From assembly GCA_964412225.1 (NCBI GenBank), contig CAYPNB010000006.1, positions 25,378 through 89,377 of the forward strand: a stretch of 64,000 nt of DNA, given 5' to 3'. The DNA comes from an uncultured bacterium. GTDB lineage: Bacteria; Hydrothermota; Tepidihabitantia; Tepidihabitantales; Tepidihabitantaceae. Within the stretch, counting starts at the first letter, position 1. The number at the start of each line of letters is the position of its first letter. The translations under genes and the position numbers were made by a program. Below are positions 17,971 through 64,000 of this stretch, piece by piece. The notes under the pieces are model-generated. The model saw nothing but the letters and a program-made list of their open reading frames with translations, was not told where the DNA came from and did no database searches.

Positions 17971-18347
17971 GAAGGCGGGTCGGACGGTCGCCCCGTTTTT
18001 GCGGGGAGGAAAGTCCGGGCACCAAAGGGCAGGACACTCGTTAATAGCGAGGCTGTCCGTAGCGGACAGACGGAAAGTGTCACAGAAACTACACCGCCCT
18101 ATTTGGGGTAAGGGTGAAATAGTGCGGTAAGAGCGCACTATCCGTGGTGGTGACATCACGGATGGATAAACCCTGTCCGGTGCAAGACCAAGCAGGGAGT
18201 TGTGAGTGCTGTTTTTGCACTCCCGGACTGGCCCGGTCCGCATTGGCTCCCGGGTAGGTCGCTTGAGGCCGGCGGGCAACCGCTGGTCCCAGATAAATGA
18301 CCGTCGCCCTGAAAAGGGAACAGAACCCGGCTTACAGACCCGCCTTC
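17971..18347 (+). ncRNA. rnpB: RNase P RNA (bacterial type A)
   Basis: Universally conserved P4 strands GGAAAGUCCGGGC and ACAGAACCCGGCUUA. P1 pairing (aaggcgggtc...gacccgcctt). ~377 nt. Overlaps only spurious ORFs in the track. Confidence 0.85.
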
Positions 18348-18405
18348 ATTGTTAATTATTCCCCTGTTTGACAGGAGAGAAATCGTTGATAAATTGAAAG
18401 ACAGT

Positions 18406-21863: not shown

Positions 21864-23264
21864 ATGAAAGACACAATTGTTATTGGTGCTGGACCGGCTG
21901 GCTATGTGACGGCGATCCGTTTGGCTCAGCTGGGGCAGGAAGTGGTGGTGGTGGAGGAGGCACGGGTGGGAGGTGTGTGTCTTAACCGGGGTTGTATTCC
22001 GGTTAAGGCGTTACTCCACGCTGCGGCAACAGTACGCAATGCGGCTGAAGCCAGACAGATGGGGATAAACTTTGCTCCACCGACGATTGACCTGATTAGC
22101 GTTGCTTCCTGGAAGGCAAGGATAGTGGAGCGACTGGCAAAGGGAATAGAGTTTCTGTTCAAGACAAACGGCGTAGAGCTGGTGCGGGGCCGGGGAAGAC
22201 TGGCGGCACCGGACCGGGTAGTGGTACGGGGTCCAGACGGAGACCGAGAGCTTACCGCCCGTAATGTGGTCATCGCCACTGGCTCCCGGCCAGCGGTGCT
22301 TTCTGGATTGGAGCCAGACAATCGGCAGATAATTGACTCCAATGGCGCCCTCAATCTAGTGAAACTGCCGAACCGGGTGGTGATTGTTGGTGCCGGTGCT
22401 ATCGGTCTGGAGTTTGCCACAATTTTCCAGCGCTTCGGTGCCCGGGTTACTGTTCTGGAAATGTGTGATTCAATTCTGCCCGGCACCGACCCGGAGTTGA
22501 CCCAGATTCTCCGGCGTCAGATGGAACGGGAAGGCATTGAGTTCCGGTTGGGTGTGAAGGGAGCAAGTTGTGAGGCGATAACCGATAGCGGTGCCCGGGT
22601 TTGTGTTGCCGAGGAGACGGGTAAAACTGATCTGGATGCTGACCAGGTGTTGGTGGCGATAGGACGAGTGGCGAATTCCGGGGATTTGGGGTTGAACGAG
22701 CTGGGTGTAGAGATGGATGAACGGGGATTTGTAAAAACCGATTGCCGCTATCAAACGAATTGCAAAGGATTGTTTGCAATTGGCGATATCCGGGGGGGGC
22801 CATTACTGGCCCATAAGGCAATGTTTGAGGGAATAGAACTTGCCGAACTGCTTACCGGTACCCAGAACCGGAAGACTGGGAGAAAGCGGGCAATTCCATC
22901 AGTGGTTTATACCGATCCGGAGCTGGCAACAGTGGGCTTAAGTGAAGCGGCGGCAAGGGAAGCGGGTTTCAAAGTTAGGGTGGCAAAAATCCCGGTGACG
23001 GCAATCGGCAGGTCGTTGACCCTCAGTAGGAGTGAAGGGTTGTGTAAGGTGGTGGCAGATGATGCGAGCGGCAAGATTTTAGGGGTTGGGATAGTTGCCG
23101 CCCAGGCGGATGCATTGATTGCCGAGGCGGCGGTGGCAGTGGAACTGGGTTTAACCGCAGAAGAACTGGGCCGGGTTGTTCATCCCCATCCAACAATGAG
23201 CGAACTTGTCTTTGAGTCAGCGCATGCGCTTCTGGGGAGGGCAATTCACATTGTCAACCGTTAA
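21864..23264 (+). CDS. lpdA: Dihydrolipoyl dehydrogenase
   Basis: FAD-binding GAGPAGY, redox disulfide CLNRGCIPVKALL, NAD-binding GAGAIGLE, C-terminal dimerisation HPHPT motif. Confidence 0.9.
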   Translation: MKDTIVIGAGPAGYVTAIRLAQLGQEVVVVEEARVGGVCLNRGCIPVKALLHAAATVRNAAEARQMGINFAPPTIDLISVASWKARIVERLAKGIEFLFKTNGVELVRGRGRLAAPDRVVVRGPDGDRELTARNVVIATGSRPAVLSGLEPDNRQIIDSNGALNLVKLPNRVVIVGAGAIGLEFATIFQRFGARVTVLEMCDSILPGTDPELTQILRRQMEREGIEFRLGVKGASCEAITDSGARVCVAEETGKTDLDADQVLVAIGRVANSGDLGLNELGVEMDERGFVKTDCRYQTNCKGLFAIGDIRGGPLLAHKAMFEGIELAELLTGTQNRKTGRKRAIPSVVYTDPELATVGLSEAAAREAGFKVRVAKIPVTAIGRSLTLSRSEGLCKVVADDASGKILGVGIVAAQADALIAEAAVAVELGLTAEELGRVVHPHPTMSELVFESAHALLGRAIHIVNR

Positions 23265-23270
23265 GCGATA

Positions 23271-23984
23271 ATGCGTCCGGCACTGCTCTGGGAACTGGGT
23301 AGAGTTGAGTATCAGCGGGCTCTGGTATTGCAGCACGAGGTTCATCAGCAGCGGGTGGCAAGCCGGATACCGGATACGTTGCTTCTCCTTGAGCATCCTC
23401 CGGTTATCACCTTCGGTCGGACCGCGGACAAAAGCAACCTGCTTGTTGCTGAAGCGGAACTTACCCGGTTGGGGATTGCAGTAAAAAAGGTGGAGCGGGG
23501 GGGTGATGTCACCTATCACGGTCCGGGTCAGCTGGTCGGTTACCCGATTTTTCATCTCCGGGAGGGGTTGGTCGGAGTGCGCCGGTTTGTTGAAGGAGTG
23601 GAAACGGCGCTGGTTCTGGCGTTACAGGATTTAGGTATTCCCGCTGAGGTGCAACCGAAACTGGTCGGGGTCTGGGTAAAAGGAAAAAAAATCGCCTCTA
23701 TCGGCATTGCGGTCCGGGAGGGTGTTACACTGCACGGTTTTGCTCTGAATGTTAAGAATGACCTGAGCGGTTTTCGGCTGATTCATCCCTGTGGAATGAG
23801 GTCGGTGGCGATGACGGCGATAGAGATTGAAGTGGGAATGGCTGACCCGCCAACGGTCAGGGCGGCGGTTGTCAGTGGTTTTGAAAGGGTATTCGGTTTG
23901 GTTTTTCAGAAAAACTTACCCCGCAGTTTAACTACACGGATAAATTCAGACAGCGTTTTTGCCATTGATTCCGCTTCAGCCTGA
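23271..23984 (+). CDS. lipB: Lipoyl(octanoyl) transferase
   Basis: RGGDVTYHGPGQLVGYPIF motif and catalytic Cys region (HPCGM). Confidence 0.85.
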   Translation: MRPALLWELGRVEYQRALVLQHEVHQQRVASRIPDTLLLLEHPPVITFGRTADKSNLLVAEAELTRLGIAVKKVERGGDVTYHGPGQLVGYPIFHLREGLVGVRRFVEGVETALVLALQDLGIPAEVQPKLVGVWVKGKKIASIGIAVREGVTLHGFALNVKNDLSGFRLIHPCGMRSVAMTAIEIEVGMADPPTVRAAVVSGFERVFGLVFQKNLPRSLTTRINSDSVFAIDSASA

Positions 23985-31399: not shown

Positions 31400-31409
31400 A
31401 AAATTTGAA

Positions 31410-31482
31410 TGGGCCCTAGTGGACTTGAACCACTGGCCCCTGCGTTATCAGCACAGTGCTCTACCACCTGAGCTAAGGGCCC
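31410..31482 (-). tRNA. tRNA-Ile (anticodon GAT)
   Basis: The reverse complement GGGCCCTTAGCTCAGGTGGTAGAGCACTGTGCTGATAACGCAGGGGCCAGTGGTTCAAGTCCACTAGGGCCCA folds as a cloverleaf with anticodon loop CTGATAA. Confidence 0.85.
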
Positions 31483-31512
31483 AACAGATTTAATCATATT
31501 ATAAAACTTTAG

Positions 31513-56345: not shown

Positions 56346-56747
56346 TTGATGCTATTAAATGTAAAAGAGTCGGGCCGGTTTCACGGTCATATCGGTCCCT
56401 GGCTGATTTTGGGTTGGCGCTGTGGCCGATATGGGGCACGAAAACTGAAGGGTTCACCGTTTGAACTTTTGGTTCTGGTGGAGTGTCCGGCAAAACCGCC
56501 GGCAAGCTGCTTTATTGACGGCATTCAGACCGGCTCGGGGTGTACGATGGGTAAGGGAAACATCAGCCATCGCCGGCGCAATGGCGTCTGCCGGGCTTTC
56601 TTTCAGCACCGGGGAAATGGCCGGAGATTGTTAATTCAGGTCCGGCCGGAGTTGATTCCCGGATTGCATTTAATCCCTCCGGAAAAGGTAAAAAGGACCC
56701 CCCTGCAAAGTTTTGTTGGGATTCAGAAAATTGGCGCGGGATGGTGA
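56346..56747 (+). CDS. FmdE/FwdE-domain family protein
   Basis: FHGHIGPWLILGWR motif resembling the FmdE HGH.CPG signature. 133 aa. Confidence 0.45.
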   Translation: MMLLNVKESGRFHGHIGPWLILGWRCGRYGARKLKGSPFELLVLVECPAKPPASCFIDGIQTGSGCTMGKGNISHRRRNGVCRAFFQHRGNGRRLLIQVRPELIPGLHLIPPEKVKRTPLQSFVGIQKIGAGW

Positions 56748-56806
56748 ATCCTGAAAATACGGTGGTAGTCTAAATAGGTGAGGAAAGTTAAAAGGAGGTA
56801 AGGCAT

Positions 56807-57256
56807 ATGGCAAAGCACATAACAACATGGGATCCATTCCGGGAGGTATCTTCGATTCGGGATGAACTGGACCGGTTTTTTGACTCGCTGTTTGGCCGAT
56901 TCCCGCGCGAGCGAGGCGAGACTTTCTGGGCACCGCCGATAGACATTGAAGAGACCGATGAAGCGATTGTTATCCGGGCCGAACTACCGGGGATGAACAA
57001 AGAGGATATTAAGGTGAATCTTTCGGGAGATACGCTGACCATTTCTGGTGAGAGGAAACAGGAGGCCGAAAAGAAGGGCAGGACCTACTACCGGATTGAG
57101 CGCGCCTACGGCAAGTTCCAGCGGACAATTACCCTGCCGGCTGAGGTAGAAGGAGAAAAGGCGAAGGCGTCCTACAAGGCGGGGGTTCTGGAACTGGTCC
57201 TCCCGAAATCGGAGAAAGCCAAGGCGAAAGAGATTACCATCGTCGCCGAGGACTAA
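56807..57256 (+). CDS. Small heat shock protein (Hsp20/alpha-crystallin family)
   Basis: Alpha-crystallin domain (...IVIRAELPGMNKEDIKVNLSGDTLTISGER...GVLELVLPK). AAAGGAGG SD upstream. Confidence 0.9.
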   Translation: MAKHITTWDPFREVSSIRDELDRFFDSLFGRFPRERGETFWAPPIDIEETDEAIVIRAELPGMNKEDIKVNLSGDTLTISGERKQEAEKKGRTYYRIERAYGKFQRTITLPAEVEGEKAKASYKAGVLELVLPKSEKAKAKEITIVAED

Positions 57257-57270
57257 CCTACTGGAACTAC

Positions 57271-57305
57271 AAAGAGACGCCCCGTATGGGCGTCTCTTTT
57301 TTAAT
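57271..57305 (+). terminator. Rho-independent terminator after hsp20
   Basis: Perfect 12-bp inverted repeat (aaagagacgccc / gggcgtctcttt) with a 5-nt loop, followed by TTTTTTAATTTT. Confidence 0.8.
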
Positions 57306-57386
57306 TTTAGCCGGTATCAATTATGACTTCTTTGATCGAATTACCGTGAGGCAATGCGTTTCCTTGACTAAAATTGCCGGTTATTT

Positions 57387-57575
57387 ATGATTAATAGAAT
57401 GTGGAGAGATTTTTTCTTCTTACGGACTGGTGGTCATCGGTTGGCATTGAGTAAAGTCGGTCTGACGATTTTTGCCGGGCTGGGGTTGCTTTCCTGTTCG
57501 GATGCGCCGCAGATTGTCCGGGAGGCAAACCGGATAGTCCTGGTGGAAATTTTTTCCACGTTGCCCGATGAATGA
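57387..57575 (+). CDS. Lipoprotein N-terminal part ending at in-frame TGA (possible selenoprotein N-terminus; see findings)
   Basis: Lipoprotein signal (RLALSKVGLTIFAGLGLLSC, lipobox LLSC), then IVLVEIFSTLPDE, then TGA at 57573-57575. Confidence 0.45.
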   Translation: MINRMWRDFFFLRTGGHRLALSKVGLTIFAGLGLLSCSDAPQIVREANRIVLVEIFSTLPDE

Positions 57576-57593
57576 GCCTACTGTGCGTCTGCG

Positions 57594-58223
57594 GTGCAGG
57601 CGCTGGATAGTTTGATTGTGGATTACCAGGATTCCCTTGCCGGTGTCGTTTACTATTCTGCCGAGATGCACCCGGAGATGGAGGGGCGGGGCGGTCGGGG
57701 AAGGGCAAGATGGTATGGCGTGGGAATGGAGTTGCCACTCGCATTTTTTGATGGCACCCGGCGGGCACCCCAGATTACGATCAGAGACTCTTTTTACCCG
57801 ATTTACCAGTCTCTGGTTGATGCCAGCCGGGCCCAGAAGACGGTGCTGGAGATGGAGCTGGACAGTGTTCAGACACGAATTGAATCGGGTTATTTGCATG
57901 TGGGGGTACACATTACTTCCACCGATTCGGTGGTTGACACGATGAGCACCCTGCGGCTGGTGGCGGTGGTTTTTGAGGACAGTGTGCCTTATTACTCTTT
58001 TCTGAGGGGGGAGACAACCTATGCCCGGATGGTAGTGCGGGAGGTTATTGGGGATAGTCTGGGGGTCCCTCTGCAGTTGAGGTTTGGGCAGGATTTTGAC
58101 ACGGTCCTTACCGCCCCGGTTACCGGCTATAGTTTCGGTCGGGTCGGTGTGGCGGTTTCGGTTCAGGAGGTTGCGAACCGGGCGGTGTTGCAGTCGGTAA
58201 TCAGGAGAAGAGTTGGCAATTAA
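57594..58223 (+). CDS. Hypothetical protein (same frame as 57387-57575; possibly the downstream part of a TGA-interrupted selenoprotein)
   Basis: GTG start with no SD, only 18 nt after the TGA and in the same reading frame. The antisense ORF 57420-58397 is R/H/P-rich and judged spurious. Confidence 0.45.
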   Translation: MQALDSLIVDYQDSLAGVVYYSAEMHPEMEGRGGRGRARWYGVGMELPLAFFDGTRRAPQITIRDSFYPIYQSLVDASRAQKTVLEMELDSVQTRIESGYLHVGVHITSTDSVVDTMSTLRLVAVVFEDSVPYYSFLRGETTYARMVVREVIGDSLGVPLQLRFGQDFDTVLTAPVTGYSFGRVGVAVSVQEVANRAVLQSVIRRRVGN

Positions 58224-58233
58224 GGAGGTTTTT

Positions 58234-58869
58234 ATGAAGGTGAACCGGAATGGTTTTTGCCGTCTCCTTGCGGGGGGATGGGCAGTGGCGGTATCCCTGA
58301 TCGTCTTTGTCTCAGGGAGGGCGCTGGCGGCAGAGGAGAAACCGAAGGGGAAAACCAGGTATGAAATGGCGCCCGATTTTACCCTCCGCGATGTCAACGG
58401 TGAGGAGGTAACACTTTCCGAACTGTTGAAAAACGGTCCGGTTTATCTGGAGACGTGGGATTTACCCTGCGTTAACTGTGTTGCGGAACTGGATGCGCTC
58501 TTACCGGTTTATGACTCGCTGAAGTCGCGGGGCTTGCAGATCGTTGCCCTTTCCGTTGACAAACCTTCCGATGAGGCACGGGTAAAGGCGTTTGTGAAAG
58601 CCAAGAAGTGGCCCTACATCGTGCTCCTTGACCAGCAGCAAAAGGTGAAAAAGGCTTACAACGTCATCATCAAGCCAACCGCGGTTTTAATCAATATGAA
58701 GGGCGAGATTGTCTATACCCATATCGGATATAAAAAGGGTGACGAAAAGCGGATTGCCGAGGAGATGAAAAAGTGGTTGCCCGAGAAACCGGTTGACGAT
58801 ACGCCGGTAGAGAATGACAGGGGAGAAGAACCGGAAGGGGAACAGGAGAAAGGTAAAGGGCAGCAGTGA
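58234..58869 (+). CDS. TlpA/ResA-like thiol-disulfide oxidoreductase (thioredoxin fold, CxxC), signal-anchored
   Basis: Perfect AAGGAGG SD 6 nt before the ATG at 58234. N-terminal signal/TM. Redox motif WDLPCVNC with APDFTL... upstream (TlpA/AhpC-TSA family pattern). Confidence 0.75.
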   Translation: MKVNRNGFCRLLAGGWAVAVSLIVFVSGRALAAEEKPKGKTRYEMAPDFTLRDVNGEEVTLSELLKNGPVYLETWDLPCVNCVAELDALLPVYDSLKSRGLQIVALSVDKPSDEARVKAFVKAKKWPYIVLLDQQQKVKKAYNVIIKPTAVLINMKGEIVYTHIGYKKGDEKRIAEEMKKWLPEKPVDDTPVENDRGEEPEGEQEKGKGQQ

Positions 58870-60356
58870 AGGGGACCGGAGAGAGGCGGCCGGGGTTATT
58901 TGTTCTGGGCGTTGTTTTTCCCCTGTTTTTGACTGCGGCAGAATTCACAATCCAGGGCTCCAACCGGGCGGAGTTCTGGGGATATCAGAAGGACTGGGCA
59001 ACCCATTTTGAAGACAAACTGGAGATAATTGCCCGCTACGGTGATTTTGAGGGGGAGTTCGGGGCGCTCGTTTTTGAACCGTCAAAGCATGGACCGAGTG
59101 AGCGGAAGCCGGTGCGGTTGCTGGATTACACCATTGGTTATAACCCCCGGGAGGTGGAGCTGCGGCTGGGAAGGTTTTTCGCCACCTTCGGGCAGGGGCT
59201 GGCGCTGCGGACCTATTCTGATGACGATTTTCGGCATTACAAAAGCCTGCACGGGCTGCTGGGCAGGTTTAATTTACCGTTGCGAACACAGGTGACCCTT
59301 TTGGGGGGCAGGTTGCGGGATGTTTTCTTTCAGGAGAACACCTACAAGACGATGAACGAACTGGATACCACCGACCAGGTGCTGGGAGCAGACTTGACCG
59401 CGCAACCGGTGCGATTTCTTTCGTTGGGGGGGAGGTATGTGCGGATTAACCGGGAGGTGGATCCGACCGCAAAGGCGTTTACTGAGATTTTTGGCGGTGA
59501 TATCGGGCTGGATTTCGGACCGGTGGCGGTCTCCGGTGAGTTGTGCTGGCGGCTCGGTACAAAGCCCGGGATTGGCGGCAGGGAGAAAGGTTTTGGTGGA
59601 GTGGCGAATGTCATTTTGACCCTTGCCGGGTTTTCTGTTCTTGGGCAATACGTTGACTACACCCGTTTGGGTTTTCCGCCCGGCGTTTATCATTATAACG
59701 ACCCGCCGACACCGATTAAGTCCGGGGTGGCGATAAACCGGGGTGTTGATGAGCGCGGTTTCGGAGTCCAGGTTTCTGGAATGCCGACGGCCGCGGTTTA
59801 TCTTGAGGGGGATCTGGGTCGGTTGTTTGTTCATGACGATACAAGTGCCGGGGTTCTGGAAGGCGAAGTTAAGGGGAGATATACTCCTGGCGGCAACTGG
59901 ACATTAGAGACAAAGTTTAACCATATGGAGCAGAAGAACATTGAACTGGGCACCTATCGCCGGATCAACGACCGTCCGGGTCTACTTTTTAATTATCTGG
60001 CAGGTGGACATACCTTTGCCCTGGAGGCAGAAATGGGCTGGGTCGAGGAATGGCCTTCAGATACCACCCACGGGGCGGTGTGGCGGTATCACGAGCCGGT
60101 GATTGCCTTCAGTTACGGTTACGGTGAAAGGTGGCTTTTTACTATCGGCTGGCAGGGTGTGGACCGGGATTCGCTAAAGCGTTATGACAATCAACGGTCC
60201 TGGCCGATGTTTGAGACGGTCTGGAACATAAGCGAGAGGAACGTTTTGCGGGTGCGGGTTGGTGCGGAGAAGGGGGGGTATACCTGCTCGGGTGGTGTAT
60301 GCCGTTATGAGGCGCCATTTCAGGGTGTGAAGTTACAGTTGATCAGTCGGATATAG
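58866..60356 (+). CDS. Hypothetical secreted protein, predicted outer-membrane beta-barrel
   Basis: N-terminal signal peptide. 496 aa with alternating aromatic/Gly-rich beta-strand-like segments. 4-nt overlap with the TlpA-like gene. Confidence 0.4.
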   Translation: MKGTGERRPGLFVLGVVFPLFLTAAEFTIQGSNRAEFWGYQKDWATHFEDKLEIIARYGDFEGEFGALVFEPSKHGPSERKPVRLLDYTIGYNPREVELRLGRFFATFGQGLALRTYSDDDFRHYKSLHGLLGRFNLPLRTQVTLLGGRLRDVFFQENTYKTMNELDTTDQVLGADLTAQPVRFLSLGGRYVRINREVDPTAKAFTEIFGGDIGLDFGPVAVSGELCWRLGTKPGIGGREKGFGGVANVILTLAGFSVLGQYVDYTRLGFPPGVYHYNDPPTPIKSGVAINRGVDERGFGVQVSGMPTAAVYLEGDLGRLFVHDDTSAGVLEGEVKGRYTPGGNWTLETKFNHMEQKNIELGTYRRINDRPGLLFNYLAGGHTFALEAEMGWVEEWPSDTTHGAVWRYHEPVIAFSYGYGERWLFTIGWQGVDRDSLKRYDNQRSWPMFETVWNISERNVLRVRVGAEKGGYTCSGGVCRYEAPFQGVKLQLISRI

Positions 60357-60359
60357 AGG

Positions 60360-60470
60360 ATGCGGCGGGTAGTGATTGCGGTTATGATTTTAATCGGGGT
60401 GGCAGCGCTGATTCTCGGGGTCAAAGTTGGCCTGCTGGCGGTAATTCACGGTTTTGCCTCTCAGATATGA
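60360..60470 (+). CDS. Candidate 36-aa single-TM small membrane protein
   Basis: ATG at 60360 preceded by AGAGGA. Encodes MRRVVIAVMILIGVAALILGVKVGLLAVIHGFASQI. Not in the ORF track. Confidence 0.35.
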   Translation: MRRVVIAVMILIGVAALILGVKVGLLAVIHGFASQI

Positions 60471-60506
60471 CTGTCCTGTATGGGCCTCGTGTAGGCCATT
60501 AAAAGA

Positions 60507-61787
60507 ATGAAGAAACGGAAAATCGCCCCTTATCGCATCGGTCAGATAATCGGAACGGTGGTACTCAATGCCTATATCCTTGCCTATATTCAGGGAAAGA
60601 TTCTTTATTCTGGTTTTCTGAAGAGCATCCCGGAGCCGGTGCTCAACTGTTATGGCGGTCCGCTTTCGGTTTTCGCCTGTCCGCTTGGCTCATTCCAGCA
60701 GATTCTCGCCCAGCAGGGGTTGGCGTTCTATTTAAGGGTGCCCTGGGTTATTCTGGGGTTATTTATTGTGATTGGCGCTTTTGTCGGTAGGAGCCCCTGT
60801 GCTTGGGTGTGTCCATTCGGACTGGGGCAGGATTTACTTTATAAGATTAAACTCGGTCCGCGAGCAAAGGATAAACGGTGGATTTCCTTTGTGGTCATCG
60901 GCGTCATCGGATTGCTCGCGGTGGCGCTGCTCGCGGTTTTTGTCAAGGTTAATATTGCGAAGGCGCTCCTTTTCGGCTGGCTGCCGTTTATGGCGCTTTA
61001 CCTGTTCGGGGTATTCAAGGGGAAGATGGGACTGCCCAAGCGTTGGTTTCCGGGTGGAACGCTGGTGGGAATCGGTCTGGGGTTATTGATCGGCTGGCGT
61101 TATGATGTGAATCTGGGGATAGCCAGTGGGGTGGTGGCGACCACGGGGTTGGGGTTGGTAGGACCGGTGCCAACGCTGCTGCTGGCGGTGCCGGCTGGTT
61201 TTATCCTGGCGCTTTTTGGTAAAGGTGCTCATCTCGGACCTTTTGCCGGTGCTGAACTGGGGCTGCTGTTTGTCGTTTTTGCCGTTGTGGTGGTACTTTT
61301 GGTTGACCACTGGCTGAAACTCGCGCTGCCGGCGACGGGTTTGAAGTATCTATTTTTTGTCCTGGTGGCGGGGGTGCTGGCGTTCTTCACCGCCGAGCCC
61401 TGGTTTTGCAAACTGTGTCCGCAGGGAACCCTGGAGGCGGGTATTCCGCTCGTTCTCTGGGATCCGGTTCAGGGTTTGCGCAGTCTGGTGGGCTGGCTGT
61501 TTTACCTGAAGGTGGCGATACTTTTATTTGTTCTCTGGGCGGCAATGGTTATCAAACGGCCTTTCTGTCGGGTGGTTTGTCCAATTGGCGCAATTTATGC
61601 CCTTTTCAACAGGGTCAGCCTTTTGCGGCTTAAACTGGACCGGGAGAGTTGCAACGAATGCCAGTTGTGTCGCCGGGTCTGTCCAATGGACATTGAGCCT
61701 TACCAGGAGCCGAATCAAATAGACTGTATTCGTTGTTTTGAGTGTGTCTGGCATTGTCCGAAATCCAGTCTCAAAATTTCTGTCTGA
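60507..61787 (+). CDS. NapH/MauN/FixG-like integral membrane iron-sulfur protein with C-terminal 2x[4Fe-4S] ferredoxin motifs
   Basis: Multiple TM helices with CX3CP motifs (CAWVCP; CRVVCP), plus C-terminal CNECQLCRRVCP and CIRCFECVWHCP. Confidence 0.7.
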   Translation: MKKRKIAPYRIGQIIGTVVLNAYILAYIQGKILYSGFLKSIPEPVLNCYGGPLSVFACPLGSFQQILAQQGLAFYLRVPWVILGLFIVIGAFVGRSPCAWVCPFGLGQDLLYKIKLGPRAKDKRWISFVVIGVIGLLAVALLAVFVKVNIAKALLFGWLPFMALYLFGVFKGKMGLPKRWFPGGTLVGIGLGLLIGWRYDVNLGIASGVVATTGLGLVGPVPTLLLAVPAGFILALFGKGAHLGPFAGAELGLLFVVFAVVVVLLVDHWLKLALPATGLKYLFFVLVAGVLAFFTAEPWFCKLCPQGTLEAGIPLVLWDPVQGLRSLVGWLFYLKVAILLFVLWAAMVIKRPFCRVVCPIGAIYALFNRVSLLRLKLDRESCNECQLCRRVCPMDIEPYQEPNQIDCIRCFECVWHCPKSSLKISV

Positions 61788-61793
61788 AAAGCG

Positions 61794-62636
61794 GTGCGGA
61801 AACCGGAATGGCTGAAGGTGCAGTTACCCGGAGGCAAGGGGTTTAATCGGGTCAACGCAATTTTACTCCGGCACCGGCTGAATACGGTATGCAGCAGCGC
61901 CCGCTGTCCCAATATCGCCGAGTGTTGGAGTTCCGGGACCACAACGATAATGATTCTCGGCAATGTCTGTACCCGTGCCTGTCGCTTTTGTGCGGTGCGG
62001 ACCGGCAATCCGCAGGGCAAAACGGAGGTGGATGAGCCAGAAAGGGTGGCGCTGGCGGTTAAGGAACTGGGGGTTAGCTATCTGGTTCTTACATCGGTTG
62101 ACCGGGATGATCTGGCAGATTTCGGTGCCGGGCATTTTGCCCGAACAGTTCAGGTGGTGAAGGAGAGAAACCCCGGGGTGAAGGTTGAGGTTTTGGTGCC
62201 CGATTTTGGTGGACAGGAGGATTTGATAGCCGCGGTGCTGGCAGCTGGACCGGATGTATTCGGACATAATCTGGAGACGGTTGAACGTTTGACCCCCCTG
62301 GTGCGGGACCGGCGGGCAGGTTACCGGCTTTCCTTAACGGTTCTGGAGAAGGCAAAGAAAATTGCCCCTGCGGTGATAACCAAGAGCGGGTTGATGCTGG
62401 GGTTGGGGGAGACGCTGACAGAGGTCTTTGCCACCCTGGGAGATTTGCGCGCGGTGGGATGCGATGTGGTTACAGTTGGGCAGTACCTGCAGCCGAGCCG
62501 AGGGTGTCTGGATGTGGTGCGTTTCTGGACCCCCGCGGAGTTTGCCGAGATTAAAGCCCGGGCCGAGGTGATGGGGTTCCGGCAGGTTCAGGCAGGACCG
62601 CTGGTGCGCAGTTCTTATCGGGCGGCAGGAGATTAG
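61794..62636 (+). CDS. lipA: Lipoyl synthase
   Basis: N-terminal auxiliary cluster Cys (CSSARCPNIAECW) and radical SAM CTRACRFC. GTG start. Confidence 0.9.
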   Translation: MRKPEWLKVQLPGGKGFNRVNAILLRHRLNTVCSSARCPNIAECWSSGTTTIMILGNVCTRACRFCAVRTGNPQGKTEVDEPERVALAVKELGVSYLVLTSVDRDDLADFGAGHFARTVQVVKERNPGVKVEVLVPDFGGQEDLIAAVLAAGPDVFGHNLETVERLTPLVRDRRAGYRLSLTVLEKAKKIAPAVITKSGLMLGLGETLTEVFATLGDLRAVGCDVVTVGQYLQPSRGCLDVVRFWTPAEFAEIKARAEVMGFRQVQAGPLVRSSYRAAGD

Positions 62637-62638
62637 GG

Positions 62639-64000
62639 GTGGCCCCGACCGGTCAGGAGCGACCGCTCGCTCCCAAGGAGATTAAGTACGGGCTGAAGAT
62701 ATCAATAATTGAGGGTGCCTTTGCTACGCTTCATACCACCTTTGCCGGCGGGATGTTTCTTGCCGGTCTGGCGTTATATCTGGGGGCCAATTCGTTTCAG
62801 ATCGCCTTGATTTCTGGTATTCCGGCACTGGTGACCGGGTTCAGTTTTCTTGCCGGCTACCTTGTGCGCCAGATTCAGTCCCGGAAAATTCTGGTACTTT
62901 GGAGTGCGGGTTTAGGCAGGGCGATTTATATCGTTCTGGTGCCATTTCTTTTTCTTGAGATAAGGGTAAAAATCGCCTTTTTTCTTGCCTTGATTACCAT
63001 TGCCAGCGTTCTGATGACGATTGCCGGAACCACCTGGACATCCTGGATCAGCGATCTGGTGCCGGAGGACCAGCGGGGAAGGTTTTTCGGAGTGCGGAAT
63101 GCCGTTCTCGGTGTTACCGGTGTTTTTGCCGGCTATGCCGCGGGCAGAGGAATGGATTTTCTGAAGGCGAGCGGTAGGGAGTCGCTGGGTTATGCTCTTG
63201 CCTTCAGTCTGGCGATAGTAATGGGGTTAATTTCTACTCTTTTACTTGTCCGTCAACCCGAGCCAAAGCTGTCACCCAGGCCCGCAGCGAGGATAAAGGA
63301 GGTTGTCTTTGGTCCTTTGCAGGAGCCGCAGTTCCGACGGCTGACCGTTTTTCTTGCGATCTGGTTTCTCACCGGGACCCTGGCGTCGCCGTTCTATCTG
63401 GTGCATCTGATTAAAAACCTTCGTTTCGGTTTTGCCGCAATTGCCATCTACTCAATGATTGGCGGTGTAATCGGTGTTTTATTCCAGATTTTCTGGGGCA
63501 AGGCGATTGACCGGTTTGGTTCCCGGCCGGTAACAGTGCTCAATTTTGCCCTGGTTGGGGTTATGCCGTTTCTCTGGCTTTTTGCCACACCTGGTTTTCG
63601 TCTGCCGATCTGGATTGACGGGGTGCTGAACGGAGTGGTCTGGACCGGTGCCAGCCTCGGACTCTGGAATTTGCTTTTGGACCTGGCGGACAATCCGGCA
63701 CGGAAGGAAAGTTATTTTGCCATTTACAGCGTAGTAACCGGCCTGGGCGCCTTTGTTGCTTCACTGGTTGCGGGAACTCTTGCCCAGTTGCTGGGCCGGT
63801 TTCACCTGGTTATCGCGGGCGCGGATTTTTATAACTACGACGTGATGTTTCTCCTTGCCGGCTTTGCCCGTTTTGCCTGTTTGCCGCTGCTGTTAAAGGT
63901 TCAGGAGTCGGGCAGTAAACCGGTTCGTCATACGATCAGGGAGTTGTCCAATATGGCGCTCTGGCGGTTGAATGCGGGGAAGGATGTGCTCTTGCAGGCG
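62639..64000 (+). CDS. MFS-type transporter (3'-truncated at window end)
   Basis: The frame is open from GTG at 62639 to the end of the window. Twelve-TM-like hydrophobic periodicity with a basic loop (DRFGSRP). Not in the ORF track because it has no stop. Confidence 0.6.
   Translation, partial: MAPTGQERPLAPKEIKYGLKISIIEGAFATLHTTFAGGMFLAGLALYLGANSFQIALISGIPALVTGFSFLAGYLVRQIQSRKILVLWSAGLGRAIYIVLVPFLFLEIRVKIAFFLALITIASVLMTIAGTTWTSWISDLVPEDQRGRFFGVRNAVLGVTGVFAGYAAGRGMDFLKASGRESLGYALAFSLAIVMGLISTLLLVRQPEPKLSPRPAARIKEVVFGPLQEPQFRRLTVFLAIWFLTGTLASPFYLVHLIKNLRFGFAAIAIYSMIGGVIGVLFQIFWGKAIDRFGSRPVTVLNFALVGVMPFLWLFATPGFRLPIWIDGVLNGVVWTGASLGLWNLLLDLADNPARKESYFAIYSVVTGLGAFVASLVAGTLAQLLGRFHLVIAGADFYNYDVMFLLAGFARFACLPLLLKVQESGSKPVRHTIRELSNMALWRLNAGKDVLLQA

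Follow-up and report, generated by a model that had tools for sequence, protein, structure and literature searches.

Proteins of the DsbD/CcdA family are, to our knowledge, the only established route by which reducing equivalents are moved over the bacterial inner membrane to thioredoxin-like proteins. The question raised here is whether a five-gene locus in a stretch of DNA from an uncultured bacterium of the Hydrothermota (GenBank assembly GCA_964412225.1, contig CAYPNB010000006.1, positions 25,378–89,377; this whole stretch of 64,000 nucleotides is called the window) encodes another such route, built around an iron–sulfur (Fe-S) membrane protein resembling NapH. As an earlier note made from the letters of the window had described, five tightly spaced genes, all on the plus strand, follow the terminator of an hsp20 gene and span positions 57387–61787. 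They make up one conserved operon, and on balance we think it probable that its products form a reductive thiol/selenol relay across the envelope. The five genes are as follows.

57387–58223, plus strand: gene 1, predicted Omp28-like selenoprotein lipoprotein, one reading frame broken only by a TGA codon
58235–58869, plus strand: gene 2, TlpA/ResA-like redoxin with AhpC-TSA/Redoxin domains, a signal peptide and the motif W-x-x-x-C-V-N-C
58866–60356, plus strand: gene 3, predicted DUF6029 outer-membrane beta-barrel (PF19494; a barrel in the AlphaFold2 model)
60360–60470, plus strand: gene 4, single-pass membrane peptide of 36 amino acids, found at the same position in 20 loci
60507–61787, plus strand: gene 5, NapH-like polytopic Fe-S membrane protein with three Fer4_5 matches and a match to NapH/MauN

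The translation signals at the head of the locus were found as the note had given them. The stop codon of gene 1 (TAA, 58221–58223) overlaps a Shine-Dalgarno sequence, AAGGAGG, that sits 8 nt 5′ of the ATG of gene 2 at 58235 (the program listing open reading frames, ORFs, had placed this start at a TTG at 58213), and the stop of gene 2 and the start of gene 3 share the GTGA at 58866–58869. Three nucleotides separate the stop of gene 3 from gene 4, and 36 nt lie between gene 4 and gene 5. A protein identical to that of gene 5 occurs in GCA_900098825.1, and the nearest relatives are all labelled WOR-3.

Gene 5 was aligned with E. coli NapH across both CX3CP motifs and both 4Fe-4S motifs, so that the earlier NapH/MauN-like assignment holds for all four. 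Three Pfam matches to Fer4_5 were found together with matches to Fer4_10 and Fer4_7, and the NapH/MauN models TIGR02163 and NF007013 gave 59.8 bits (cut-off 213) and 57.9 bits (cut-off 234), far below both cut-offs. The two CX3CP motifs (C98AWVC102P and C354RVVC358P) each follow a membrane helix and are predicted to be cytoplasmic, and the C-terminal pair of 4Fe-4S motifs (C382/385/388/392 and C407/410/413/417) matched ferredoxin domains in the PDB; in the same PDB searches, no solved structure covered the NapH-like membrane domain. The AlphaFold2 model (predicted local distance difference test, pLDDT, 79.6) contains 10 membrane helices, of which helices 1, 2, 9, and 10 are equivalent to the four-helix core of NapH; the shared membrane module of NapH-type proteins has been described (PMC5928378). 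Between them lies a six-helix central insert (residues ~123–270) with no conserved Cys or His, which is missing from shorter relatives of ~265–290 amino acids. The insert opens with a module KRW-x-SF...LLFGW[LV]PF that is repeated as an N-terminal extension in homologues of ~535 amino acids (P0073, P0104, and P0116), and this module has been duplicated or moved within the family.

The core itself was seen to be an internal repeat, each half of which consists of a helix, an outer Cys motif, a second helix and an inner CX3CP motif. C48 and C58 lie in the loop after helix 1 and C301xxC304 in the loop after helix 9, both predicted on the outer face, and E. coli NapH has no cysteine in either corresponding loop. 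Across 89 sequences, C48, C58, C301, C304, C98, C354, C358, and the eight 4Fe-4S cysteines were invariant, and C102 was kept in at least 90%. Since the core is an internal repeat, both faces of the membrane may hold the same kind of centre, which could be redox-active dithiols or Fe-S clusters; the dithiol option is suggested by a discussion of the iron content of NosR (Buttet et al. 2018, PMC5928378).

A profile search of 1.84 billion cluster representatives returned 8363 relatives, 363 of them at E ≤ 1e-30; the counts of fusions and motifs given below refer to the best 150 family representatives. The same order of elements (outer loop-1 motif, CX3CP, outer loop-2 motif, CX3CP, ferredoxin domain) was shared by 133 complete proteins. 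In most of these the loop-1 motif is CxxCx6CP, with Cx9CP in the long form from WOR-3, and the loop-2 motif is Cx2CP in 35 and Cx3CP in 98. The NapH-like protein belongs to a large subfamily in which the NapH core is combined with invariant outer-loop cysteines on the opposite face, for which no specific NCBIfam model of an outer-Cys NapH-like protein/TlpA system was found.

A ResA/TlpA-like domain is fused to the C-terminus of the NapH-like protein in 31 of the 150 representatives (fused chains include P0327 and P0363), and an NCBIfam scan likewise showed napH_ models together with ResA or TlpA models within single chains. In all 31 fusions, exactly one hydrophobic helix lies between the ferredoxin and the thioredoxin domains, which therefore places the thioredoxin domain opposite the Fe-S domain, on the side of the Cys-rich loops. 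In four of the 150, the partner is a GltD-like Fe-S flavoprotein of the NAD(P)H-dependent kind, joined in either order. The case for a single pathway made up of TlpA, the NapH-like protein and an input from NAD(P)H and Fe-S centres draws its best support from such fused chains. In one of the fusions (P0283), the GltD-like part matches NF045663 ("diclust_near_Sec"), whose name, for a pyridine nucleotide-disulfide oxidoreductase/dicluster protein, refers to nearby selenoprotein genes, which hints at a wider tie between this type of flavoprotein and selenoprotein systems.

The density of Lys and Arg per residue over the 89 sequences was 0.17 in the predicted inner loops and 0.05 in the outer loops. 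Because of this positive-inside bias and the architecture of the fusions, the Cys-rich loops are predicted to face outward with the N-terminus inside. This placement fits the accepted topology of NapH.

For the analysis of gene neighbourhoods, one genome per GTDB species was scanned (255 relatives), using the outer-face Cys motifs themselves as patterns and E. coli napH as the sole control, and 77 loci were examined. Of the 60 loci with enough flanking sequence, 55 had a TlpA-like gene on the same strand no more than 2.6 kb 5′ of the NapH-like gene, and DUF6029 lay directly upstream of the NapH-like gene in at least 53 of 66; together with the Omp28-like gene carrying the in-frame TGA in about 45 loci, this bears out the co-conservation that the earlier note had made a test of its proposal. 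The order Omp28-like gene with TGA, TlpA, DUF6029, (36-aa peptide), NapH-like gene is kept across WOR-3, TA06, and Stahlbacteria, down to ~35% identity for DUF6029 and 24–30% for the Omp28-like protein, and Chloroflexi and some other loci retain only the TlpA/NapH-like pair. Complete WOR-3 chromosomes that contain the module include CP070680, CP070834, CP070705, CP070664, CP070802, and CP070686. Gene order is kept to a degree far beyond chance. A membrane-anchored GltD-like Fe-S flavoprotein (Fer4_20 plus Pyr_redox_2) is encoded 3′ of the short-form NapH-like gene in ~17 loci, and five loci show the order Mrp/NUBPL, PDO-like thioredoxin, TrxB, glutaredoxin, TlpA (as a lipoprotein), NapH-like protein. 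Tandem pairs of a secreted protein of ~190 amino acids (no Pfam match), together with proteins of ~400 amino acids bearing a type IX secretion system (T9SS) C-terminal domain, were seen 5′ of the module in more distant loci, namely L039–L042, L051–L053, L057, L062, L063, and L071; these may be surface clients or simply neighbours of the system.

Gene 1, at the outer-membrane end of the proposed relay, had been listed by the ORF program as two pieces, 57387–57575 and 57594–58223, which are in the same frame with only the TGA at 57573–57575 between them. Read through this codon, the product contains ...LVEIFSTLPDE-U-AYC..., giving the motif U63-A-Y-C66. Two features carry the reading of the codon.

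57573–57575, plus strand: predicted UGA selenocysteine codon, TGA-x-x-TG[CT] kept in ~45 loci
57585–57603, plus strand: candidate hairpin of the bacterial selenocysteine insertion sequence (SECIS) type, GCGUCUGC-GGU-GCAGGCGC, beginning 12 nt past the U of the UGA

An in-frame TGA-x-x-Cys was found in the gene directly 5′ of the TlpA-like gene in ~45 related loci, none of which had Cys at the TGA position, and coding conservation flanked the TGA on both sides down to ~24–30% identity. An equivalent 8-bp hairpin with a GGN loop was present in the aligned loci, with compensatory double changes at six of the eight pairs. The fold energy of the region as a single sequence was unremarkable (z = −0.62), so that the comparative analysis is the informative one, and Rfam scans of the hairpin region, at both gathering and E-value thresholds, returned no SECIS family. 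In other homologues (P0244, P0263, P0264, P0265, and P0266) the position is occupied by CxxC; P0244 is from WOR-3, P0265 is from Bacteroidota and labelled "Omp28-related outer membrane protein", and T9SS sorting domains occur in P0264 and P0266. Because the TGA-x-x-Cys is conserved, the hairpin covaries and other homologues have CxxC there, the UGA is predicted with confidence to encode selenocysteine, which upholds what had been noted as a possible selenocysteine in a thioredoxin-like lipoprotein. No selA, selB, selD or tRNA-Sec was found within the 64-kb window.

A lipobox (LLSC|SDAP) is present in gene 1, and C-S-[DE]-A-P was seen in all 45 homologues. Cys37, Sec63, Cys66, and Pro117 are invariant, and Pro117 may be the cis-Pro of a thioredoxin fold. 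The models NF045500 (Omp28_seleno) and NF033782 (lipoprot_Omp28) were matched by 16 of 18 family members, all below the cut-offs: gene 1 scored 30.7 bits against a cut-off of 200, and the best family member, at E = 3.5e-12, was also below it. A PDB sequence search with the Omp28-like protein gave no match. The lipobox, the invariant proline and these matches therefore point to a divergent thioredoxin-fold lipoprotein of the Omp28 superfamily with a UxxC centre. It shares with the Omp28 family (PF11551) and NF045500 the lipoprotein character, the N-terminal thioredoxin-like CxxC/UxxC motif and the C-terminal beta-rich domain, whereas its scores of ~30–50 bits against cut-offs of 150 and 200 set it apart as a divergent WOR-3 branch. 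The module is not a general feature of Omp28 proteins; that possibility was ruled out, the Cys-type homologues P0244 and P0265 lying outside the module.

Public entries for the Omp28-like protein are mostly fragments of 174–208 amino acids that start past the UGA. An antisense ORF (57420–58397, minus strand, 325 amino acids) spans the UGA-split gene, and similar antisense ORFs occur in 23 loci; it was rejected as a real gene, being an artefact or by-product of the split sense gene, and it carries a risk of miscalling. One full-length homologue (P0241) has Gly at the selenocysteine position (...EDF-G-TFC...); this is either a variant that occurs in nature, inactive or with a single Cys, or an error of annotation. 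In another WOR-3 genome (L080, 2584–2880), a catalytic subunit of ferredoxin:thioredoxin reductase (PF02943 FeThRed_B, 98 amino acids) is encoded ~5 kb 5′ of two Cys-type Omp28-like genes, which suggests that Fe-S-dependent disulfide reduction is used elsewhere in WOR-3.

Genes 2, 3, and 4 likewise agree with what had been proposed for them, namely a TlpA-like CxxC oxidoreductase with a signal sequence, a 496-aa outer-membrane beta-barrel and a transmembrane peptide of 36 amino acids. Gene 2 matched AhpC-TSA (74 bits) and Redoxin (65 bits) in Pfam and, among curated models, ResA at 81.5 bits (cut-off 170) and TlpA at 32 bits (cut-off 230). Its CxxC was present in all 43 homologues aligned across the site, and its translation begins with a signal sequence ending ALA-AEE. 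It is accordingly predicted to be an exported, periplasmic thiol:disulfide oxidoreductase of the TlpA/ResA type.

Gene 3 matched PF19494 (DUF6029) at 61.7 bits, above the cut-off of 27, with part of the profile covered, and its AlphaFold2 model is a large beta-barrel (pLDDT 90.3). Counted from the strand list of the model, the barrel would have ~24 strands with short periplasmic turns. In a Foldseek comparison with the PDB, the top matches were the 24-strand ushers FimD/PapC (TM-score 0.54), followed by TonB-dependent receptors, MtrB, and LptD, so that the best matches are outer-membrane barrels of 22–26 strands; a resemblance of DUF6029 to the Wzi barrel has been remarked on from HHpred (PMC9603273). 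The protein has a C-terminal beta-signal and an invariant C474-S-G-G-V-C479 at the tip of the last hairpin, a Cys pair that is also present, as CTGGRC, in the distant homologue of locus L083. From strand parity, this tip is predicted to be extracellular.

Gene 4 encodes a genuine conserved microprotein: the 36-aa peptide, with a single membrane helix and a Lys/Arg-rich N-terminus, recurs between DUF6029 and the NapH-like gene with the same stop and an invariant C-terminal IH[GR]FA[SA]QI. Other lineages fill this slot with a different small membrane protein, e.g., one of 100 amino acids with three hydrophobic segments and ending CLSC (L071, 7810–8112).

Taken together, a supply of reductant to TlpA that is independent of DsbD/CcdA, and from TlpA to a selenoprotein and barrel pair at the outer membrane, is the reading that we hold to be somewhat favoured. 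In a first step, reduced ferredoxin would load the cytoplasmic 4Fe-4S clusters of the NapH-like protein; in relatives, the donor would be NAD(P)H via the adjacent or fused GltD-like Fe-S flavoprotein, or the neighbouring TrxB/glutaredoxin set. By way of the CX3CP site, electrons would then cross the membrane and arrive at C48/C58 and C301xxC304, which is the weakest step. The outer-face cysteines would pass reducing power by thiol–disulfide exchange to the CxxC of the secreted TlpA-like protein, and TlpA would in turn keep the UxxC of the Omp28-like outer-membrane lipoprotein reduced, the lipoprotein working with or sitting on the DUF6029 barrel. By these steps the system would do the job of DsbD/CcdA, and serve a client in addition, without a protein of the DsbD family. 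Disulfides of the envelope or surface could be the terminal substrate, as could a small compound of sulfur, selenium or a metal in oxidised form.

DsbD_2 (PF02683) matched none of the five proteins or other scanned ORFs of the window (E-value limit 1e-10; some ORFs below ~150 amino acids were left unscanned), and neither the 64-kb window nor the 77 loci contained a membrane ORF of the CcdA type with SPCxxP. The DsbD/CcdA-independent route had been put forward in the earlier note, and its support now includes the conservation, the TlpA fusions and the links to GltD-like flavoproteins, TrxB and glutaredoxin; the direction of flow, the chemistry of the membrane crossing and the terminal substrate are what we infer.

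Like NapH, NosR, and PceC (RdhC), the system has a core of four helices and a pair of CX3CP motifs on the cytoplasmic side; the C-terminal pair of [4Fe-4S] sites is shared with NapH and NosR. The proposed role is also alike, namely to link an extracytosolic redox partner with electron pools of the cytoplasm or membrane. The system differs from these proteins in that this partner is an adjacent or fused TlpA-like thioredoxin and not NapG or a flavinylated FMN-binding domain, and from NapH also in its four to five extra invariant outer-loop cysteines, to which the WOR-3 long form adds the six-helix insert. Compared with the E. coli nap operon, no NapG/NapA and no Nap, Nos, Rdh or Mau partner genes were found in the window or the conserved neighbourhoods, and FMN_bind and ApbE gave no match in the five genes or the scanned neighbours, where PF12801 was present. 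NapH-like systems (PF12801) have been defined as modular conduits that carry electrons through the membrane and are paired with flavinylated FMN-binding domains (Méheust et al. 2021, PMC8238504). That study also notes that a flavinylated domain, a cytochrome or a thioredoxin-like protein can stand in for one another.

With DsbD, CcdA, and ScsB and their TlpA/ResA/CcmG clients, the system shares the proposed job of passing cytoplasmic reductant to an extracytoplasmic thioredoxin-fold protein, and its fused forms mimic the covalently attached thioredoxin-like domain of DsbD. Unlike DsbD, it shows no DsbD_2 homology, and on its input side a ferredoxin domain (Fe-S, fed in relatives by NAD(P)H via the GltD-like protein) takes the place of a cytoplasmic thioredoxin acting on membrane-embedded cysteines. 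A cluster of DsbD, a thioredoxin-like protein, DUF3570 and DUF4266 (a CXC lipoprotein) has been described (PMC8238504). Its layout is analogous, except that NapH-like, DUF6029 and Omp28-like UxxC proteins take the respective places of DsbD, DUF3570, and DUF4266 here, and that there is no flavinylation.

Literature searches (DUF6029, Omp28 selenoprotein, NapH with TlpA, CX3CP, PF12801, CcdA/DsbD) found no description of a NapH-like/TlpA pairing, in agreement with the earlier statement that the combination is not a described system. What is new is the combination: a thioredoxin-like protein as the output of a NapH-like module, together with an outer-face Cys signature of the module's own and a selenoprotein/barrel pair. 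The system stands outside NapH proper, the flavinylated NapH-like systems and DsbD/CcdA, and it plausibly works like the last of these.

The boundaries of the operon and its neighbours are listed here.

56807–57256: hsp20, upstream neighbour of the operon
57271–57308 including the T-run (stem-loop 57271–57299), plus strand: hsp20 intrinsic terminator with a 12-bp stem containing 7 G-C pairs and a 5-nt loop, upstream boundary of the operon
57364–57391, plus strand: candidate sigma-70-like promoter TTGACT-16-TATGAT, 10 of 12 consensus matches
61794–62636, plus strand: lipoyl synthase LipA, 379 bits to NF004019

The candidate promoter, by consensus match only, was the sole sigma-70-like match in the scanned region 56700–64000, and if it is used, the ATG at 57399 rather than 57387 may be the real start of gene 1. 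The lipA gene begins 6 nt past the stop of gene 5 and is probably co-transcribed with the operon. It was set aside as a functional member, being found 3′ of the NapH-like gene in the long-form clade only: lipA (32 loci) and a major facilitator superfamily (MFS) transporter gene (27 loci) trail the NapH-like gene in all of these closer, long-form relatives and in no short-form lineage. The window also encodes a dihydrolipoyl dehydrogenase and LplA/B (regions concerned, with lipA and the MFS transporter gene: 61794–64000 and 21864–23984), and the link to dithiol cofactors may be functional or mere synteny. Elsewhere in the window, an FmdE-domain protein of 133 amino acids (56346–56747) lies between a Thi4-type thiazole synthase gene and hsp20, without a formylmethanofuran dehydrogenase context, and a class A RNase P RNA (17972–18350; 284 bits) and a lone tRNA-Ile(GAT) (31409–31483) were found.

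Several points weigh against the proposed relay. No haem or quinone site was found for a membrane crossing of ~30 Å. The outer motifs (CxxCx6CP and Cx2-3CP) resemble Fe-S ligands, and assembly of a cluster on the outer face of a protein inserted through the Sec pathway would be hard to explain; moreover, the confidence of the AlphaFold2 model is lowest in the outer Cys loops (residues 33–47 and 308–317). Because the scan patterns were the outer-face motifs, the adjacency statistics describe the outer-Cys subfamily only. Five genomes lack a TlpA gene next to the NapH-like one, and no gene for reductant input adjoins the operon in this window. Finally, L083 contains two Cys-type Omp28-like genes with TlpA and DUF6029 and without an adjacent NapH-like gene. 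Because this group of three occurs without the NapH-like gene there, TlpA is the link shared by an inner-membrane and an outer-membrane submodule.

The other explanation that survives best, and that is still unlikely, makes the NapH-like protein a conduit or quinol dehydrogenase for another periplasmic process, with TlpA serving only to mature or repair its outer cysteines and being fed by a CcdA encoded elsewhere. TlpA is known to act in this way on Sco and CoxB. Ending in CP, the outer motifs are like Fe-S or metal ligands, and the submodule of L083 stands without an adjacent NapH-like gene; furthermore, all characterised members of the NapH family (NapH, NosR, and PceC) serve periplasmic reductases (PMC8238504, PMC5928378). 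However, the conserved neighbourhoods contain no periplasmic reductase, NapG-like ferredoxin, FMN-binding domain or ApbE, the CcdA-like ORF is missing from the window and the 77 loci as described above, and covalent fusion to TlpA in about a fifth of the representatives exceeds what would be expected for a transient factor.

Less probable than this is flow in the oxidative direction, in which the NapH-like protein would be an analogue of DsbB/VKOR that makes disulfides, electrons passing from TlpA inward to quinone, or to the Fe-S clusters and a cytoplasmic acceptor. NapH is regarded as a quinol-interacting subunit (PMC5928378, PMC8238504). The outer-face Cys positions of gene 5 also fit the layout of DsbB/VKOR, where a loop Cys pair is combined with a CxxC that sits where a membrane helix reaches the outer face. 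The partner, however, is a redoxin of the TlpA/ResA type, and the characterised members of that type are reductants. Modules that supply reductant, i.e., NAD(P)H-dependent GltD-like flavoproteins, TrxB and glutaredoxin, are fused or adjacent to the relatives, and the metabolism encoded in the window is ferredoxin-based, with a 2-oxoacid:ferredoxin oxidoreductase.

Handling of metals or metalloids, with the NapH-like protein as a CcoG-like cupric reductase and TlpA, the UxxC lipoprotein and the barrel in traffic or detoxification of copper, mercury, selenium or tellurium, ranks slightly lower again and is in our view improbable. TlpA proteins serve the assembly of copper centres, UxxC and CxxC motifs bind soft metals, and many homologues are annotated with the CcoG-type Fer4_18 domain, and weak CcoG matches were found; the copper transporter OprC was among the barrel matches, though as a generic barrel similarity. 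Against this, the CcoG score of 17 bits compares with a cut-off of 317, and no copper chaperone, P-type ATPase, mer or ars genes were found in the neighbourhoods. That the genes are merely inherited together without shared function and that the UGA marks a pseudogene is hardly credible: it is true that lipA and the MFS transporter gene, which have no obvious functional tie, also keep their place in the closer relatives, but the pairing survives to identities of 35% and below and across phyla and exists as gene fusions, and the UGA is conserved with a covarying hairpin while some homologues have CxxC in its place.

The reductive relay may also be taken further, to a complete trans-envelope thiol/selenol conduit and haem-free counterpart of MtrCAB, a tentative extension that we regard as rather doubtful. 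The Fe-S/cysteine wire of the NapH-like protein would reduce TlpA, which would dock into or reach through the ~24-strand DUF6029 barrel and thereby keep a selenocysteine thioredoxin, the Omp28-like lipoprotein, reduced at the cell surface. As in MtrCAB and other lipoprotein/barrel pairs (LptDE and SusCD), the gene for a large barrel lies beside those for a redox carrier of the periplasm and for an outer-membrane lipoprotein that bears a redox centre. Unlike MtrCAB, the system contains no haems; thiol/selenol chemistry needs protein contact and not electron tunnelling, and surface exposure of the lipoprotein and entry of TlpA into the barrel are proposals.

The data point to a second route for reducing equivalents over the inner membrane, built on the NapH scaffold, whose signature is an outer-face CxxCx6CP or Cx9CP plus Cx2-3CP and which occurs in hundreds of sequence clusters with frequent fusion to its proposed client. 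They also give a first functional context for DUF6029 and for Omp28-type lipoproteins, including a selenoprotein that public annotation has split or missed, and they extend the idea of interchangeable outputs on the same membrane modules (PMC8238504). If such a complete conduit exists, an anaerobe could spend electrons of ferredoxin or NAD(P)H outside the cell, for example on disulfides of the surface, on sulfur or polysulfide, or on species of selenium or metals, and the outer-Cys NapH-like subfamily would be a second widespread and DsbD-independent way to export reducing power, often as one fused polypeptide.

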